This document shows positions 26,891-34,921 of a stretch of 64,000 bases of DNA, in pieces. Made by a program: the position numbers and the translations under genes. Numbering within the stretch: position 1 is the stretch's first letter; the number at the start of each line of letters is the position of its first letter. Below the pieces are notes generated by a model, which saw only the letters and a list, made by a program, of their open reading frames with translations, was not told the origin of the DNA and ran no database searches. The DNA is taken from positions 19,753-83,752 of the forward strand of contig VHCM01000001.1 in NCBI GenBank assembly GCA_016871685.1, in the 5' to 3' direction. Origin of the DNA: Verrucomicrobiota bacterium (GTDB taxonomy: Bacteria; Verrucomicrobiota; Verrucomicrobiia; Verrucomicrobiales; Akkermansiaceae).

Positions 26891-27142
26891 TTACAGGTCA
26901 TGGAACTCGTCTTCCGTGAGTTCCGCCTGCTTCAGAATGGAACGGAAAGTTCCTGTGGGCACATCCCCGGTGTGCATCGGCAGGTAGGTCTGCCGCCCGT
27001 CACGGTGGCGCAACACGAGATGCGATCCGCTTTGCCGACGTTCCTCGAAACCGGCACGCTTGAGAAGTTTGCGAAAAGGTGTAGCCGGTGGAGCGAGAAG
27101 ATGTTGGCCAGGGCAAGGCGTTGCGATGGAGTGGATTGACAT
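26891..27142 (-). CDS. hicA: HicA-family toxin, orphan, N-terminus possibly degenerate
   Basis: [49 protein letters not shown]. Confidence 0.7.
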
Positions 27143-27271
27143 CCATGACTGAGCAACAACGCAGCCATGGAGGAAAGATTCCGCTTCTCATACAAATCCG
27201 GCGAAGCCGCAAATGTCCCACACCCAACTCCAACCACCGGCTACAGATTTGAGCAAAATGCTCTACAGCTT

Positions 27272-27431
27272 GCGCAACACCTCTTTCGCCTAGTGAGGTA
27301 TGTCACGCGACCTCCATGAATGCAAGGATTGCCTCAGGCTGGACGACGATGGGCTCACCATGGACGCGTTTTTCCTCATTCCACAGATTGACCAGATCGG
27401 CAAGAACGTAGCCTCAACCGGCTGGTTCGGC
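27272..27431 (-). other. Degenerate attC (cassette 5)
   Basis: R'' GCCGAAC, L'' GGTTGAGG and L' CCTCACT present. No GTT at the expected R' position; GTTGCGC lies about 7 nt further on. Confidence 0.5.
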
Positions 27432-27437
27432 ATTTGA

Positions 27438-27737
27438 TCATGTTCCGTAAGTGTTGAATGCCCAAGAGACTCCAACATACAGCGACGCAAGGGAAGATAT
27501 GAGTATGAGCGAGAGAGCAAAGAGCTTTGCCGGTCGCCATCGGGGCTTTGACGTGAAGAGAGGAGATTGGCGAAGCGCCCAGAAATAGGCGGGAAACGCG
27601 AGAACGAGGGGAACAAGGAACACGCCGATCTCGTTTCGAGCGAAGGATGGAAGTGCCTGTGCGTGGCCGTATAGGAGGAATTGGCCCAGCACGTGGGTGC
27701 CGAAGATGCTTCCATAAGCAATGAGGAGTCTCTTCAT
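27438..27737 (-). CDS. Cassette 5: small membrane protein (99 aa)
   Basis: ATG 17 nt inside the cassette boundary; three hydrophobic segments; stop just before attC. Confidence 0.7.
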   Translation of the reverse strand: MKRLLIAYGSIFGTHVLGQFLLYGHAQALPSFARNEIGVFLVPLVLAFPAYFWALRQSPLFTSKPRWRPAKLFALSLILISSLASLYVGVSWAFNTYGT

Positions 27738-27747
27738 ATCATCTCTT

Positions 27748-27820
27748 GCCAAAACGATCAAGCTCACCGGCGGCAATGGAGCGCAGCGGAATTGCCGTCC
27801 GGTGTAGCGCCTTGTTAGGC
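27748..27820 (-). other. attC (cassette 4)
   Basis: GCCTAAC-AAGGC-GCTACACC...GGTGAGC-TTGATC-GTT(TTGGC); canonical box spacing with an extrahelical base. Confidence 0.9.
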
Positions 27821-27862
27821 TGTTCTTGGTATCCAAACGGCTGTCCGTTTTTGATTTCACAA

Positions 27863-29854
27863 CTATATTTTCAACATCCCCAGCCCAGCCAGATACTCAT
27901 AAGTCCTGTCATAATATTCCGACTTTCGCGTCACATCATTCTCCGACCCTTCCGGTACCAGCACCACCATGCCTTGCCGGGCGCGAGTTAAAAGGACGCG
28001 ATAGGCGTTCTTGAGATATGACTTTCTCTCAACCGCCCGTATTCTATTCCACCGCATGGCCTGCTGATTCGGAACCGCGCGAAACTCGTATGTTTCCCAG
28101 CTATTGCCCGCGAATCTGTAGTCAGCATCCCAAGCCACGCAGACCCAGTCGAGTTCAAGCCCCTGCACGTCAAATTCAGTGGCGACGTCTTCCATGAAGA
28201 AAGACGAGCGCACATCATCACGGCCATTAAGAAACCAATGCACTGGGCTGGCTTTGGCCTTTACATCAAGCGCCAGTGGTCTGAGTCGGGCTCCTTTGGA
28301 TGACGCGACTATGCCGTACCTTTCAGAACCATGCGCCTGTGCTCTCAGCCAAGCTTTTGCTTTATGGATGTCGCGTGTGAGCGCCAATGGATAATGCTCT
28401 GAAACTTCGCGCACCATATTGCGGGCAAGTTCGCCTTCCACATCGAGTATATGCTTCACAAGCGATGACACCTTCTCACTGCGGAATGATCGTATCGACG
28501 TCTTCAAATGCAATTCGGGCAAACGGATCACTGCGCTGTGCTGAGCCAACGATTTTTCGGTCTTCTCTGCCCCGAATTCCGCTTCTGCGAGTTGGTCAGA
28601 GACGTAGATCTTCCATTCCGGGAAAGATCGGTACACCGATTCAATCCATTCACCGATTCCAGCCTCGCCGGTGTTGATCTCCTGACCTCCGCCGACCAAG
28701 CAGACTACTACGGCCCAATCCTGGTGACGGTTCATACAAGAGATCAAGAACTCGGGTTCGGACATACGAAAGTTCGGCTGATTCTTCTTTCGCTTCATGA
28801 AATCGATGGTCATGTCGCGAGTCCAAGCCCTTTGGGCTTCATCAAATATTGCAACATGCTCAATGGGTGGATTGATGGGATCATGCAAACCTTCATCGCG
28901 GAAATGGTGAATGATTTGAACGAAAGCCTTCACTTCGCTGAGAGCCTCGCCCTTTCTGAACTTCGCACCCATCTCTCGAGTGCGCAGTACCTTGTCCCGG
29001 GCCAAAGCTTCCTGCAATACGGCGACCAAGGGGCCGTTGCCTGAAAGGTACACGCTATAAAGCTCGTCTTTGGCATCGATATGTTTTGTTGCGATATCCA
29101 GCCCGACAAGAGTCTTGCCAGCGCCGGGAACGCCGGTCACAAAGCAGACCGCCTTTTCGCCATTATCTCTGGTGGTTCGGATGATCTCAGAAACAGATGC
29201 AGAGGTCGTGGTCAGGTTGTCGCCAGCGTCGTTCTTTGTGATCTCCACTACCGAATGGCCGCGATAGAGCGCCAGAGTCGCTTCAATTATGGTCGGAGTC
29301 GGTTTGTACCGGCTCTGCTCCCACTCCAAGCCATTTAACGCCGGCCCTTTCGCCGCTGCCAGGCCCAGAGCGATGGCCTTGGAAAATGTTTTCTCGTTGG
29401 CTTTCAATGGCCTAAAAAGCCTGCCCCTGGCAAGAACTGCCTCTTTAGATGCATGTGTGTCTTGTGCTCCTGTGGCGACCAATACAGGAATGATGAATTT
29501 GTCGTGGCTACCTTCGTGGAAGTTGGAAAGATCTAGGCCATAGTCCATAACCTGATCCAGGTCTTGCGCGTTAAAGGCCTTCTCGCCCACTTTGAATTCA
29601 ATGACAAATATCACCGGCCCGATTAGCACGATTGCATCCACCCGGCGGCCCATGCGCGGGATGGAGTATTCGAAATAGATGTCTCCATCGTGGCCTGCCA
29701 AGCCGAGTTTCAGGCATTTCATCTGGTCGACCCAGGCGTCGCGTTGTTGGGGGGTGAGGTCAAAAGAGTTTACAGTTGCCATTTGGCCGAGGATGGCCGA
29801 TTGGTCAGCAGCGGCGAAGCGGGAGATCGTGGATTTGTAGAAGTAGCGGTTCAT
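27863..29854 (-). CDS. Cassette 4: PD-(D/E)XK-type nuclease fused to DUF2075 (SF1-like) helicase
   Basis: EYSIPRMGRRVDAIVL, IEFKVG, DQVMDY; Walker A GVPGAGKT; Walker B FDEAQR; QGLELDW; YRVLLTRARQG. Confidence 0.85.
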   Translation of the reverse strand: MNRYFYKSTISRFAAADQSAILGQMATVNSFDLTPQQRDAWVDQMKCLKLGLAGHDGDIYFEYSIPRMGRRVDAIVLIGPVIFVIEFKVGEKAFNAQDLDQVMDYGLDLSNFHEGSHDKFIIPVLVATGAQDTHASKEAVLARGRLFRPLKANEKTFSKAIALGLAAAKGPALNGLEWEQSRYKPTPTIIEATLALYRGHSVVEITKNDAGDNLTTTSASVSEIIRTTRDNGEKAVCFVTGVPGAGKTLVGLDIATKHIDAKDELYSVYLSGNGPLVAVLQEALARDKVLRTREMGAKFRKGEALSEVKAFVQIIHHFRDEGLHDPINPPIEHVAIFDEAQRAWTRDMTIDFMKRKKNQPNFRMSEPEFLISCMNRHQDWAVVVCLVGGGQEINTGEAGIGEWIESVYRSFPEWKIYVSDQLAEAEFGAEKTEKSLAQHSAVIRLPELHLKTSIRSFRSEKVSSLVKHILDVEGELARNMVREVSEHYPLALTRDIHKAKAWLRAQAHGSERYGIVASSKGARLRPLALDVKAKASPVHWFLNGRDDVRSSFFMEDVATEFDVQGLELDWVCVAWDADYRFAGNSWETYEFRAVPNQQAMRWNRIRAVERKSYLKNAYRVLLTRARQGMVVLVPEGSENDVTRKSEYYDRTYEYLAGLGMLKI

Positions 29855-29942
29855 CAGATCCTCTCGCCCTTTGGAAACCGCCTTAGAACTACCTCTGTCA
29901 CAAGCATTTTGTCTTCGCTATGCATCAGAATTACTATCAACA

Positions 29943-30070
29943 GCCTAAACGTCAAAGTTGAGCGACTGCCGCCAGAAACGCAAGGTCGAGCGTGAAGAGC
30001 GCGTCTAAATTGCCACAGCGCGTCGAGCGGAGAGGCTGGGCGGCAGTTCGTCTCCAGCGTCTGGTTCGGC
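29943..30070 (-). other. attC (cassette 3)
   Basis: GCCGAAC-CAGAC-GCTGGAGA-CGAACTGCCGCC...GGCGGCAGTC-GCTCAAC-TTTGAC-GTT(TAGGC). Confidence 0.85.
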
Positions 30071-30077
30071 AATGGTG

Positions 30078-30812
30078 TCATTGTAGGGAGCGAATCGAGA
30101 GACCAATAAACTGCCCATACATTAGCAAGGGCACGACTCCGAGGACAGGGCCAACGAACATGCCGACAAGCATCATGCCGCTCGACGGTTCCTGCCGATA
30201 GCGGTCGAGTAGATGCCCAACCGGGTCTCTCCGCTTTTTCACTTGGTCGGCGATCATCGCCACGCACATGAACGCTGCCCAACACAGCGCGAGGCCAATG
30301 AGGATGTAGCCCAAGCAATCCCAGAACGAGGGAAAAGCTGAATCAGGAAGTCGTGAACCGTCAGTGATAGCATAATACAGCTTCTTGGCGATCGGCTTGA
30401 GCATGAAGATGCCCTGAAGGAACACCGGCACACCCGGGGTGTCAGAAATCATCCGACCAACTATTGGGATAAAGCACAAGACCAGCACCAGGAGCATGGC
30501 GAGGAAGCCAGCTTTGAACACAGGCCAGAAGAGCGGACCAATCACCTCTCCAGGTGTGAACCCACCTCCGCCGATAATGGCCGGAAGGCAAAGAAGAACG
30601 AATCCGGATACAGCGATAGCCTGAATCAATGGTCCACCAACAATCACGAGAAAGCAGCCCGCCCCGATGCGTGCGCTCGATTCGCCGTCGCCCATAGTGA
30701 GTCCAGAGATCAGCGGATAAAGGATGGAGGCGATGCTGACTCCCGCCATGCCGACAAGGATATGCCAGTCGAGCAAGCTTGTGATTCCTGCACCTACAGA
30801 TTCCCAGAACAT
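30078..30812 (-). CDS. Cassette 3: multi-TM membrane protein of unknown function (244 aa)
   Basis: About 6 hydrophobic segments; fills the cassette between two attC sites. Confidence 0.75.
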   Translation of the reverse strand: MFWESVGAGITSLLDWHILVGMAGVSIASILYPLISGLTMGDGESSARIGAGCFLVIVGGPLIQAIAVSGFVLLCLPAIIGGGGFTPGEVIGPLFWPVFKAGFLAMLLVLVLCFIPIVGRMISDTPGVPVFLQGIFMLKPIAKKLYYAITDGSRLPDSAFPSFWDCLGYILIGLALCWAAFMCVAMIADQVKKRRDPVGHLLDRYRQEPSSGMMLVGMFVGPVLGVVPLLMYGQFIGLSIRSLQ

Positions 30813-30830
30813 AGTGAGCGCGATGTTGTT

Positions 30831-30890
30831 GCCGAACGCCCCGGTTCAGCGGCGGAACGGAGTGCCGTCCGCTGCAACCGATTGTTCGGC
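30831..30890 (-). other. attC (cassette 2), 60 bp
   Basis: GCCGAAC-AATCG-GTTGCAGC-GGACGG...CCGTTCCGCC-GCTGAAC-CGGGGC-GTTCGGC. Confidence 0.92.
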
Positions 30891-30938
30891 CGGCCTGAGT
30901 TTCCGACGCAATGTACGGCTTGGCTGTACCGTTGCCTA

Positions 30939-31328
30939 TTAGCCTTCCGGGTTCAACGATGAGTGGTGCTCTACGATCTTCCAATCATTCTCTGTCCATT
31001 GATAGACGAACGTGTATCGGGCCTCCACCGTGGCGCGTCCTTCGTCCTTGCTGTCGATCTTGAAGCTGTAGAGTCCGGAGTTGACGGCAACGCCACCCAG
31101 TACTCGTGTGTAGGCTTCCACGGCCGTACCAACGGGATGCTTCGGCAGAAACTCCCTCTCGAAGTACCCGCGTATCTTCCGATGTCCTTTCTTGACGTCG
31201 CCCTTGAGCGTCGAAAGCAAGATCGCATCTCTCGCATAGAGTGCGGTCACTTGAGCCGGGTCGCCGGTCTTCAAAGCTGCGAACCAGCGGTCCAGTTGCT
31301 TTTCGACGTCTTTGATGATGCTGCTCAT
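30939..31328 (-). CDS. Cassette 2: SnoaL/NTF2-like (DUF4440, SgcJ/EcaC-type) protein
   Basis: LDRWFAALKTGDPAQVTALYARDAILL, ARYTFVY, WKIVEHHSS; AGGAG RBS before ATG 31328. Confidence 0.85.
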   Translation of the reverse strand: MSSIIKDVEKQLDRWFAALKTGDPAQVTALYARDAILLSTLKGDVKKGHRKIRGYFEREFLPKHPVGTAVEAYTRVLGGVAVNSGLYSFKIDSKDEGRATVEARYTFVYQWTENDWKIVEHHSSLNPEG

Positions 31329-31370
31329 GAAGTCTCCTAGTCTCGTGTTTGGGAGCGTATGGTTTGTGGA

Positions 31371-31495
31371 GCCGAACGTCGAGGTGTGGCACCGACTACC
31401 GGGAGCGCCACTCCGCAACAGGGTTGAGGGTTGTAGTCAAGGGGGGCATTTAACTCGGGGCGGGTAGTCGGTTGTCCACCACCGCCTTGTTAGCC
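31371..31495 (-). other. attC (cassette 1), 125 bp
   Basis: GGCTAAC-AAGGC-GGTGGTGG-ACAACCGACTACC...GGTAGTCGGTG-CCACACC-TCGAC-GTTCGGC. R'' contains the MTase stop and is complementary to GTTAGCC at 33334-33340. Confidence 0.9.
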
Positions 31496-32725
31496 CTCTT
31501 TTTTCAGGATGACGATTCGATTACTGTTCGTGCCTTTCTTATTGTTGGACACCCCCCAGCAATTCGCGGTCTTCGTGAAGTCTTGGGAGTTAATCATGAT
31601 GCACTCTGGAATGAGACCCGCCTCAAAACCGGCCTTCACAACCTCATTCTCAAGGAGCAAAACACCACTGCGGATCTCACCGACTTCAAAGGCGACAATC
31701 CCGCCAGGCTGAAGGATTCTCTTAAGTTCCTTAAAAACATTGGTCATCCTTGCTACCCACTGATCCAACGACTTGATTTGCCAAATACTGTCTGGATCAA
31801 CCGACAACTCGCAGAACCACATTCTAAGCCAGTTGTCGCCGATGTAATCAACGGTGTCTAAGAACGGTGGTGAAGTCACTACAAGTCTTACTGAATCCGA
31901 GGGAATATCGGAGGTAGAATCGGCTGAGGAGCAGAGTATCTCGTGATCGTGTCGGGAATAATCATGTGGCAATGGATCGCGAAGCAGCTGCTTGGTCTTT
32001 TTGAGAATCAGCGCCTTAGTGTTACGGTATTCAGGAATTTGGTTGCGCTTCGCGTTAATGCGGCGTTGCGCCTCCAATGAAGTTGCTTGGTTTGGTGGCA
32101 GCGTATAGACTGAGAAGAATCCATTGGAATGCCCAGTTAGACGATTACAAGCGACCATCTGAATCCACGCATCAACCAAATCAAATGTGCCTTGTCTCTT
32201 GCGAATGCGAAAGTAAGTGCGCCAGCCATACAACTCGGCCAAGGTATCGGGCGCGAAGAATACAAGAAGATCGGAATCAACCTTGCTTGTCATCGACAGG
32301 GAAACCTCAGTCAAGCGTTCTTCAACCATCTTAAACGTTGGGGGATTCAGGCGGGGGCCTCCAAGAACACCTGAAAGAGGATTGGCATCGTTGCCCATCG
32401 CTCGGCATTGTCTTAATTGTGCTTCAATTAGTGTAGTCCCTCTGCCCATAAAGGGGTCATACACCACGTCTCCGGGGACGCAAAACCTCTCAATGAAGAA
32501 GCCGGGCAACTGTGGCTTGTAGCAGGCTCGGTAGGAGACTTCATGCAGGGAGTGCCCATCCCGTTGCTTGGAAGTCCAGAACTCGTTCTCATAGACTGAG
32601 ACTTTAAGATCAGCGAAATGCCTCTCTTCAGTCCCAGTGAAGCGATTGAACTCAAAGAATGAACGTAGCTCGAAATGAAGTTCGCTAGGATCGCGTAAGA
32701 TCAATCTCTTTTTAGTCTTTGGCAT
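31490..32725 (-). CDS. Cassette 1 gene 2: amino (N4C/N6A) DNA methyltransferase
   Basis: Motif I VYDPFMGRGTT precedes motif IV VTSPPF (alpha-type order). Confidence 0.85.
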   Translation of the reverse strand: MPKTKKRLILRDPSELHFELRSFFEFNRFTGTEERHFADLKVSVYENEFWTSKQRDGHSLHEVSYRACYKPQLPGFFIERFCVPGDVVYDPFMGRGTTLIEAQLRQCRAMGNDANPLSGVLGGPRLNPPTFKMVEERLTEVSLSMTSKVDSDLLVFFAPDTLAELYGWRTYFRIRKRQGTFDLVDAWIQMVACNRLTGHSNGFFSVYTLPPNQATSLEAQRRINAKRNQIPEYRNTKALILKKTKQLLRDPLPHDYSRHDHEILCSSADSTSDIPSDSVRLVVTSPPFLDTVDYIGDNWLRMWFCELSVDPDSIWQIKSLDQWVARMTNVFKELKRILQPGGIVAFEVGEIRSGVLLLENEVVKAGFEAGLIPECIMINSQDFTKTANCWGVSNNKKGTNSNRIVILKKEG

Positions 32726-32726
32726 C

Positions 32727-33317
32727 TTAGATGACTTTCGTGTAGTGAGGCCCGTTGGACAGGATTTTGTGATTCACTGACGCTTCTAGCCTAACGCTTA
32801 CGCTAGTGGAAGGCTCGATGAAGTCCAAGCGTATGGCATCGATTGTTGCGTGTGAGGCAGTTGGGGAATACAAAATCGTCATTAGAAGATGGTGGATGGG
32901 GGCTTTGAACTGGCTTCGCAATTTGGTAGAGGAAGAGGTCAATACTCGTCTATTGGAGTCAGAGGGGTTCCAATCACTCGTGGCCTTAACCTCCAAAGGC
33001 ATCTTAAGCCGTGTTGCGCGTTCCGTGAGGGTTTTGTCTGGGTAACCCGCGCCGGAGCACGGTCCTATCGTATAGACGGATGTATGCCGTTGAAGGAGCG
33101 AAATCGTGTATTCTTCTACTTGATTGCCGATCGATTGGTTTGTGCTCCCCGGTCGAATGGGGCAATTTGTTCCTTTGATGCCCGACGAGGCCACCGCAGC
33201 TACTATGTCCGCTTCAATCGATTGACGTAGTGGAATAGGCCAGGTGTGAATCAAAGGAATCGGGGTGACTCCTTCCCAATTGAGTAGATCGGTGTAGTAA
33301 TCGAAGAGGTTGGGCAT
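32727..33317 (-). CDS. Cassette 1 gene 1: putative type II restriction endonuclease
   Basis: SIGNQVEE helix, GYPD, LEVK form a PD-(D/E)XK pattern; stop is 1 nt from the MTase ATG. Confidence 0.6.
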   Translation of the reverse strand: MPNLFDYYTDLLNWEGVTPIPLIHTWPIPLRQSIEADIVAAVASSGIKGTNCPIRPGSTNQSIGNQVEEYTISLLQRHTSVYTIGPCSGAGYPDKTLTERATRLKMPLEVKATSDWNPSDSNRRVLTSSSTKLRSQFKAPIHHLLMTILYSPTASHATIDAIRLDFIEPSTSVSVRLEASVNHKILSNGPHYTKVI

Positions 33318-33333
33318 TGGATTATTTTTCTTG

Positions 33334-33390
33334 GGCTAACAGTGTTAATAAGTAGCGTGCGGCATTTGTCCTGTAACAACCGCGTGCGGC
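33334..33390 (-). other. Putative attI site
   Basis: Core GTTAGCC at 33340-33334 before the first cassette, with no attC arm upstream; 9-bp direct repeats GCCGCACGC at 33355-33363 and 33382-33390. Confidence 0.7.
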
Positions 33391-33520
33391 TCAACCGGTG
33401 CAAATACGGCACGGAAGGATACTTCTCCGGGAATTCCGTTCATGAAGCGGTTTTTAAACCGCCATGGAGGAACTGCCAAGCAAGAAACGCGGGGCGGTGG
33501 AGGAATGAAAATTTTTCGGC

Positions 33521-34921
33521 TCAGGAAAGATCCAGTGGACTTGGGCCGCCTGCACCGGGCCTTTTCATCACATGCAGGTAGATCATCGTTGTTTCCACAC
33601 TGGCATGTCCCATGAGACTTTGGACAGTGCGGATATCGGTGCCGGATTCGAGTAAATGCGTAGCGAACGAATGGCGCATCGTGTGGCATGTGGCGCGTTT
33701 TGGGATCCCGGCCTTTCGGACAGCGTCCTTGAGTTGGCGCTGCATGGAGGATTCGTGCAGGTGGTGGCGGGCGATCCTGCCGGTGCGCGGATGCGGGCAG
33801 AGGGTGGCGGATGCGAAAATGTATTGCCAGCACCACTCGCGACTGGCGTTTGGCCACTTTCGCAGCAGGGCTTCCGGCATGTGGACGTCACCCGCAGCGA
33901 CGGCAAGATCCTGGAGATGCTTCTCGCGAAGGCGCGACAGATGTTGCTTGAGCTGTTCCTCCAAAGCCCTTGGCAGGGTGACGACGCGGTGCTTGCCGCC
34001 CTTGCCGTCGTGGATGGTGATAGTTCCCTGGCCAAAATCCAGATCTTTGACACGCAGGCGCATGGCTTCCATGAGGCGGAGGCCGCTGCCGTACATGAGC
34101 TGGGCGGCGAGTTTCCATGGGGCTTCGAGGTGGGCGAGGACTGCCCGGACTTCCTCGCGAGTCATCACGACCGGCGGACGGCGCTGGCCGCGGGCGGGAG
34201 TGAGGTGGTCGAGGGTGAATTCCTCAATTCCGAGGACGTTTTTCATGAGAAAGGCCATGGCGTTGAGCGCCTGCTTCTGGGTCGTCGGGGCGACGTTACA
34301 TTCCAGTGCGAGGAAGTCGAGGTAGGCGGTGATGGCGGGCGGTCCGGCAACTTCCGGGGATTGGCCGAGCCTTTGAAAGCAGAAGCGGATGAACCGGCAG
34401 TTCCAATGGACATACGTCTCCTCGGTAGCCATCGCCATGTTCTTGATCCGGATGGTGCGGCGGAGCGAATCAGTGAGCCGCTTGAGTTCCGAATCGGCAT
34501 CGACGACCTGTTCCGGAGTCGGCGTGGGCGAAGGGGGCAAATTGGCCCTTACGCGGATCGATTCACGGGCAACAGTCCGGTGGTCCGGTTCCAAGGAGCG
34601 GGACTGATCAGACAATCCCCGCCAATCGAAAGAGGATGCCCATGCGATGGTGAGGACATCGCAGGCGAGAACACGGGCCGCATCGACCGCCTGGCGATAT
34701 TGCCAATCGGCCAAATGGGCGGAACGGCCAAGGGCATCAAAATACTCCTGGGTGCGTTCTGGTGATTGGTGACCGCGGGCCTTGGTCCACGATTCCGCCC
34801 AGTGGAGATAGTAATCGCGTGAGCCTGGCTTGATGGGCAAGGTGGCAATCCGATGGATGAATTTCATGCGAGCCGGGGAGATATTCCGGCCCGGCTGTTC
34901 ATGCGCAGAGAACAAAGACAT
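33521..34921 (-). CDS. intI: Integron integrase with N-terminal extension
   Basis: GLRLME, GKGGK, HTMRHSFATHLLESG, LMGH, TMIY catalytic set plus the IntI insertion (KWPNASREWCWQYIF...RHHLHE). Start may be 34867. Confidence 0.95.
   Translation of the reverse strand: MSLFSAHEQPGRNISPARMKFIHRIATLPIKPGSRDYYLHWAESWTKARGHQSPERTQEYFDALGRSAHLADWQYRQAVDAARVLACDVLTIAWASSFDWRGLSDQSRSLEPDHRTVARESIRVRANLPPSPTPTPEQVVDADSELKRLTDSLRRTIRIKNMAMATEETYVHWNCRFIRFCFQRLGQSPEVAGPPAITAYLDFLALECNVAPTTQKQALNAMAFLMKNVLGIEEFTLDHLTPARGQRRPPVVMTREEVRAVLAHLEAPWKLAAQLMYGSGLRLMEAMRLRVKDLDFGQGTITIHDGKGGKHRVVTLPRALEEQLKQHLSRLREKHLQDLAVAAGDVHMPEALLRKWPNASREWCWQYIFASATLCPHPRTGRIARHHLHESSMQRQLKDAVRKAGIPKRATCHTMRHSFATHLLESGTDIRTVQSLMGHASVETTMIYLHVMKRPGAGGPSPLDLS

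Follow-up and report, generated by a model that had tools for sequence, protein, structure and literature searches.

Restriction-modification (R-M) systems have been found before as integron gene cassettes. The documented examples include the XbaI system, an enrichment of R-M functions in clusters of orthologous groups (COGs), and, in sedentary integrons, compact systems of types II and IV; two-gene cassettes and small defense systems have also been documented in integrons (PMC10661359; bioRxiv 10.1101/2024.07.02.601686). Here we describe a nuclease gene (R) and a methylase gene (M) that share one cassette, the first in the chromosomal integron of a member of the Verrucomicrobiota. The locus lies in a stretch of 64,000 nucleotides (nt) from contig VHCM01000001.1 of assembly GCA_016871685.1, and we refer to this whole stretch as the window. 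All genes and sites to which we give window coordinates are on the minus strand. Like the earlier examples, among them the XbaI system and the cassettes of Vibrio sedentary chromosomal integrons, the R-M pair of the window is compact, of type II, and enclosed in a single attC-bounded cassette. It differs from the known R-M cassettes in having a verrucomicrobial integron as its setting, an integrase that is co-oriented with the cassettes, and a nuclease family unseen by PADLOC. We conclude that the locus is probably an orthodox type IIP R-M system that has been packaged as a single integron cassette, and we favor GTAC as its target.

The restriction enzyme RsaI, from Rhodobacter blasticus 28/5, cuts this sequence at its center (GT^AC) and leaves blunt ends. 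The product of its methylase, M.RsaI (locus 04320 in PMC6256690), is GTA(m4C), where m4C is N4-methylcytosine (PMC3287169, PMC6256690). Table 1 of PMC3287169 gives plasmid sizes from which, after subtraction of the vector, we calculate an M.RsaI gene of about 1,230 bp and a deduced product of about 409 amino acids (aa). The RsaI nuclease family has been predicted, at low reliability, to be of the PD-(D/E)XK type (PMC2441816). MjaV of Methanocaldococcus jannaschii likewise recognizes GTAC and is associated with m4C, and avoidance of GTAC was noted earlier in the hosts of both RsaI and MjaV (PMC2588503). The system in the window resembles RsaI in its presumed target, which we take from genome-wide avoidance, in its methylase (411 aa, with an m4C-type SPPF motif), and in its predicted PD-(D/E)XK nuclease, whose EcoRV-like fold fits a blunt cutter. 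It differs from RsaI in the phylum of its host and in being an integron cassette. With MjaV it shares the presumed target and the type of modified base. A closer link to M.MjaV was considered and rejected: when M. jannaschii was searched with the PADLOC family that matches M, there was no hit at E<=1e-30, so M.MjaV and M are not close relatives.

The R-M pair moves between integron arrays as one cassette. The cassette (31375..33340) consists of the two genes and their own attC, and it occupies the first, attI-proximal position of the array. R (32727..33317) is followed by M (31490..32725). The stop codon of R (TAA, 32729..32727) and the start codon of M (ATG, 32725) are 1 nt apart in the string TAAGATG, which leaves no room for an attC between them. 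These coordinates bear out an earlier note on this DNA, which had described two genes 1 nt apart, with no attC between them, in one cassette at the first position. The cassette begins at 33340 with GTTAGCCC, the exact reverse complement of the first eight bases of the attC, GGGCTAAC (31496). This attC is 126 nt long (31371..31496); its R'' site, GGGCTAAC, overlaps the stop codon of M, and its R' site is GTTCGGC (31377..31371). The complementarity between cassette start and attC is repeated in the next three cassettes, the fourth having one extra T at its start. The cassette ends thus defined are better than expected by chance. Upstream of the cassette is an attI region of about 181 nt (33341..33520), in which we read from the sequence a simple site, TTAAC-ACT-G|TTAGCCC, with the G|TT crossover at 33340. 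The locus thus has an integrase with an adjacent attI, G|TT core sites, and an R'' that complements the cassette start, as expected of an integron gene cassette.

Two other copies of the cassette show where its ends are. A Logan contig from a different metagenome sample (L074) aligns by blastn with 95.5% identity over 1967 nt, covering exactly window positions 33340..31375, so that homology begins exactly at the attI crossover. The flanks of this copy are unrelated to the window: on the upstream side another attC comes to its end, and a different cassette follows downstream. The same breakpoints with different neighbors indicate that the two genes travel as a single cassette with a G|TT crossover site at each end. 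A diverged copy (L077-L080), with 72% nucleotide identity and 83% identity in the nuclease protein, lies behind yet another attC. It begins with GTTAGCC and closes with an attC that starts with GGCTAAC.

The structure of the attC was settled by comparison. Single-sequence DNA folds of the first three attC sites in the array were no better than those of shuffled sequence, and no attC model fired in an Rfam scan. In a consensus fold of three orthologous, diverged attCs, an R-box helix is followed by a spacer without pairing and then by a long L stem that contains bulged bases, and the tip is variable; 13 of the 38 pairs are kept despite changes on both sides.

Homologous systems also occur outside integrons (L001, L003, L011, and L075), indicating that an ordinary R-M operon was captured as a cassette. 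Some of these have additional genes. The non-integron version in L075 and L076, with 87% identity in R, has a third gene (L075, 2915-3487) that shares 4 nt with the end of M and encodes a 190-aa protein without a Pfam match. In L003 (5041-5937), an extra 298-aa beta-class PF01555 methylase is encoded directly upstream of R, giving the order M-R-M.

R is a 196-aa candidate restriction endonuclease. It had no match in Pfam, NCBIfam, PADLOC, or PHROGs, or in a single-sequence search of the PDB, and tblastn against plasmid and phage collections found nothing. A word-indexed search recovered 536 proteins of its family and an exhaustive search 151 clusters at 50% identity, and every named member is labelled 'hypothetical'. 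Residues G64, G91, P93, D94, E109, K111, R123, and E178 are invariant among 73 diverse homologues, and the family motif is GYPD...ExK. When the family profile was compared with the PDB, EcoRV was matched (E=9e-4), with YPD placed on D74 and ExK on D90-I-K92. The residues concerned in R are P93-D94 (33041..33036) and E109-V110-K111 (32993..32985); of these, D94, E109, and K111 are predicted to be the metal-binding and catalytic residues. The AlphaFold2 model of R is of high confidence (predicted local distance difference test score, pLDDT, 95.6; predicted template modeling score, pTM, 0.90). In Foldseek its top matches were EcoRV, SwaI, SfiI, HincII, and NlaIV, and its significant neighbors are nearly all type IIP restriction enzymes of the EcoRV branch.

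The invariant PD...ExK residues, the EcoRV profile match, and the model with its structural neighbors all agree with the PD-(D/E)XK fold that had been suggested for the 196-aa protein from the sequence. They place R, in silico, among the PD-(D/E)XK nucleases of the EcoRV structural branch. The likeness to EcoRV is at the level of fold or superfamily only: neither R nor any of the 73 homologues matched the Pfam model Endonuc-EcoRV, and the only Pfam matches of the homologues, to PDDEXK_9, Mrr_cat, and NgoMIV, were below threshold and limited to a few members. The catalytic motif is ExK in R and DxK in EcoRV. The partner methylases differ as well. M.EcoRV is a Dam-like adenine methylase with a DPPY motif, and M is of the SPPF type.

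M is a 411-aa alpha-class N6/N4 amino-methyltransferase. It matched PF01555 (1.1e-14; 55 bits, with a cut-off of 26.7) and the PADLOC family MTase_II (PDLC03325, 6e-147). Motif I, DPFMGRGTT (residues 90-98, 32458..32432), lies ahead of motif IV, TSPPFL (residues 284-289, 31876..31859), by about 190 residues, which is the alpha order, with the target-recognition domain between the two motifs. Relative to beta-class enzymes, the Pfam and PDB alignments of M are circularly permuted, and N4CMT is among the PDB matches. DPFxGRGTT and TSPPFL are invariant in all 56 of the methylases that partner an R homologue (56/56). In silico, then, M belongs to the alpha class of amino-methyltransferases, and its catalytic motif is SPPF. 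The family matches and the invariance of the motifs uphold the proposal that it belongs to the DNA N6/N4 family and is not an RNA methylase. SPPY and SPPF motifs (SPP[YF]) are associated with m4C enzymes (PMC10406627), and M is therefore predicted to make N4-methylcytosine. Homologues of M with 52-55% identity also occur within frames of 1087, 709, and 581 aa (G027:C43, G040:C23, and G037:C35; L139-L141). These may be fused R-M enzymes or otherwise extended ones.

R and M are linked in many distantly related bacteria. We analyzed 62 homologous loci from species-representative genomes of Verrucomicrobiota, Poribacteria, Acidobacteriota, Omnitrophota, Abditibacteriota, Latescibacterota, and Sumerlaeota. 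M is adjacent to R in 57 of the 62 loci, and in 55 of those it is directly downstream on the same strand. All three of the genomes without M beside R that were tested encode M elsewhere; for two of the three, the contig breaks off shortly after R. In one of the three, the cultured Geminisphaera colitermitum TAV2 (L044, 4905-5603), an intact R with 54% identity and its catalytic residues kept lies between genes for a solute symporter and an oxidoreductase, no methylase gene is close by, and an M homologue (51% identity) is on another contig; there R and M are unlinked. The separate, adjacent genes for a nuclease and a methyltransferase and their co-occurrence across genomes are the features of a type II R-M system.

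Decay of the pair is asymmetric and falls on R. At about 10 of the 57 linked loci, M is intact and all that is left of R is its C-terminal part, as is usual when a toxic nuclease decays. In L063-L073, mostly from Poribacteria, intact M genes stand beside short C-terminal R remnants, a pattern of repeated independent decays of R that left orphan methylases. Comparison of the window with L074 gives ratios of nonsynonymous to synonymous substitution rates (dN/dS) of 0.14 (R) and 0.06 (M), and both genes are under purifying selection. The genetic behavior of R and M fits that of a toxic nuclease with a protective methylase. Among 41 genomes (the host genome, G000, and 40 relatives), R was found only in G000, plus a pseudogene in one relative. 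Integron integrases were found in 22 of the 41 and M homologues in nine; seven relatives have an M homologue without R. This patchy distribution of R indicates that the cassette is accessory and was probably acquired recently.

Genome composition points to GTAC as the target. The R-M cassette (1,966 nt) contains no GTAC, and each other 4-mer palindrome occurs in it 1-11 times. When the 62 loci are taken together, no palindrome is as depleted within the R-M genes as GTAC (observed/expected 0.32); in the flanks GTAC is at 0.51, and only CTAG is lower. The host genome alone singles out no site, as CTAG, CAGCTG, GGCGCC, GAGCTC, and GTAC are all low. We also analyzed 20-kb regions far from the R-M locus in genomes that carry R. 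In 15 genomes with an intact R, the median observed/expected value for GTAC is 0.05, and 11 of the 15 are below 0.2; CTAG is next lowest (0.26), and the remaining palindromes range from 0.8 to 1.07. GTAC is wholly absent from the 20 kb sampled in seven of 16 carriers and from a 4.4-kb contig in an eighth. Four genomes with only R remnants have GTAC values of 0.61-1.13.

Comparisons within families give the same picture. A carrier from the Abditibacterium family has 3 GTAC sites where 65 are expected (0.05), against 0.56 in 14 non-carriers, and a carrier from the Pyrinomonadaceae family has 2 where 54 are expected (0.04), against 0.70 in 13 non-carriers. The Pyrinomonadaceae-family carrier (G052; L111, L164-L166) has also almost purged GGCC (0.00), GATC (0.06), and CATG (0.14), which suggests that more than one 4-base restriction system, probably several, is active in this genome.

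Based on these results, we lean toward GTAC as the recognition sequence. The system would then be of the RsaI type, with methylation to GTA-m4C and blunt GT^AC cleavage by a dimer of the nuclease. Three features together make R point to the RsaI type: the depletion of GTAC in carriers, a methylase of about 410 aa with an m4C-type motif, and a fold like that of blunt cutters. The earlier note had called R a possibly new type II restriction enzyme. This stands insofar as none of Pfam, NCBIfam, PADLOC, and PHROGs covers the family, large as it is; as to its specificity, the evidence points to a type that is already known.

Several observations weigh against an RsaI-type R-M system. R-M activity and specificity are predicted here from sequences, models, and genome composition, and the putative likeness to RsaI is drawn from target, motif, length, and fold. 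R matched no Pfam restriction-enzyme model. Its Foldseek TM-scores to EcoRV-type enzymes are modest (0.41-0.56), its identity to them is 12-17%, and it is about 50 residues shorter. GTAC is at 0.10-0.36 in most verrucomicrobial relatives without R, most of which are also without M (G001-G035, L112-L131); most genomes of the same genus or order are of this kind. Part of the verrucomicrobial signal may therefore be a lineage trait or the work of other GTAC systems; the depletion in these relatives could reflect past exposure to a GTAC system, another GTAC enzyme, or a different history of G000. Poribacteria and Latescibacterota with an intact R show no such depletion (0.6-0.9), and the value for the host genome is 0.68. 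This fits recent acquisition without proving it.

The low values in relatives without R and the undepleted carriers, including the host, would also be expected if the cassette were a real R-M system with a target other than GTAC, the depletion then coming from other GTAC systems or from a compositional habit of the carrier lineages. We regard this explanation as rather unlikely. Besides CTAG, which is universally avoided, only GTAC is depleted in carriers of three phyla, and it is kept in the family-matched non-carriers of two other phyla. No sequence of the set is poorer in GTAC than the R-M genes themselves, and an RsaI-type system is in keeping with the m4C-type motif and with a fold like that of blunt cutters.

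A second explanation is that the nuclease is inactive and the methylase alone works, so that the cassette would hold an orphan methylase and a passenger open reading frame (ORF). Loci of this kind do exist, since an intact M stands beside R remnants at about 10 homologous loci and seven relatives have an M homologue without R. R in the window is full length, keeps every invariant residue of the family, has a confidently folded model, and has been constrained since its divergence from the 95.5%-identical copy, and we think its inactivity improbable. It is most improbable that R is not a restriction enzyme at all, being instead some other methylase-associated nuclease (for repair or nicking) or a methyl-directed enzyme: PD-(D/E)XK folds do serve many functions, no curated restriction-enzyme family was matched, and a few members weakly match PDDEXK_9 or Mrr_cat, but the top structural neighbors are all type IIP restriction enzymes, R and M are strictly linked and co-occur at the genome level while decay falls asymmetrically on R, one palindrome is purged genome-wide in carriers, and a methyl-directed enzyme would not adjoin a methylase that makes its own substrate.

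We postulate that, as an orthodox R-M system, the pair would work as follows. The methylase would protect the roughly 2,700 GTAC sites of the host, and the nuclease would cut unmethylated incoming DNA. Translation of M would be coupled to translation of R through the TAAGATG junction. The R-M pair may also act as an addictive module that stabilizes the array.

How R is expressed was considered in the earlier note, which had pointed to an A-rich leader without a Shine-Dalgarno (SD) sequence and to the lack of a controller gene. Both observations are correct. The leader, GTTAGCCCAAGAAAAATAATCCAATG (33340..33315), is A-rich and has no SD sequence, and the 203 nt that separate the stop codon of intI from the start codon of R contain neither a helix-turn-helix nor a controller ORF; two small ORFs in this interval are without a Pfam match. 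The conclusion drawn there, that establishment of the system relies on weak translation of R, is not supported. The host seldom uses SD sites: by a crude set of start sites, an SD core is found at about 8-9% of gene-like ORF starts in the host genome, versus about 11% at random positions. The absence of an SD sequence is the norm in this host, so the R leader says nothing about weak translation. A-rich leaders without an SD sequence recur upstream of R homologues in several phyla.

A promoter-like element, TTAACA-16 nt-AATAAT (33321..33348), spans the attI/cassette junction. It is a speculative assignment by consensus match only; its sigma-70-like -10 ends 3 nt ahead of the R ATG, and such matches are no more numerous than chance would give. 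Scans for promoters and terminators were at chance level, with no minus-strand terminator between intI and R, so read-through from intI is possible. That the first cassette of an array is the best expressed is a general textbook view, and in this integron intI and the cassettes have the same orientation.

The integrase gene, intI (33521..34921), is a 466-aa ORF that matched TIGR02249 (1.2e-115; 386 bits, with a cut-off of 265) over residues 151-464, as well as PF00589 and PF13495. It is on the same strand as the cassettes, and the R-M cassette is directly downstream of it. Co-oriented integrases, an arrangement called 'inverted', are known from Treponema and other non-proteobacterial integrons. 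The protein has an N-terminal extension of about 150 aa (34472-34921) that resembles, by eye, a second SAM-like/core-binding module. Many integron integrases of the relatives G002-G040 likewise lie in open frames of 430-480 aa, so the extension looks like a lineage trait.

The array forms a low-GC island from about 26900 to 33500, with a GC content of 0.50-0.57 compared to about 0.65 for the host. Cassette 2 encodes a SnoaL/SgcJ-like protein, and cassette 3 has a 244-aa ORF without a family match whose product looks like a membrane protein by eye. Cassette 4 (27863-29854) encodes a 663-aa helicase of the Schlafen-group-3/DUF2075 type, an end-to-end match (4e-270) to the PADLOC candidate defense family PDC-S41. 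With the R-M cassette and the helicase cassette, the array holds at least two defense-type cassettes. At the distal end of the low-GC array is a gene for an 83-aa HicA toxin (26891-27142; PF07927, 3.4e-16).

We speculate, as a possibility that we hold to be rather doubtful, that R founds a widespread EcoRV-fold family distinct from RsaI, either an independent GTAC cutter or an enzyme of undescribed specificity. In that case the family would combine with a rare alpha-class m4C methylase in a self-contained mobile cassette, whose -10 element, joined to a -35 element borne by attI, would give a nearly leaderless R transcript.

R-M cassettes of integrons were already known, and our understanding of R-M systems and integrons is unchanged by this well-supported annotation, which involves no new mechanism. 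What is new is the unannotated nuclease family, the base-exact mobility of the cassette, and the likely target revealed by the genomes of carriers. More than 500 'hypothetical proteins' missed by Pfam, NCBIfam, PADLOC, and PHROGs are hereby given a function and a fold, together with catalytic residues and a probable recognition site. As the family is unrecognized by PADLOC models, standard defense scans would report these systems as orphan methylases. The enzyme could be of use as a compact isoschizomer of the RsaI type. For integrons, the locus provides a two-gene R-M unit that moves between arrays with base-exact breakpoints, in a phylum whose integrons are little studied. For the bacteria that carry the system, the near purge of one tetranucleotide in three phyla makes a strong case of restriction shaping genome composition.

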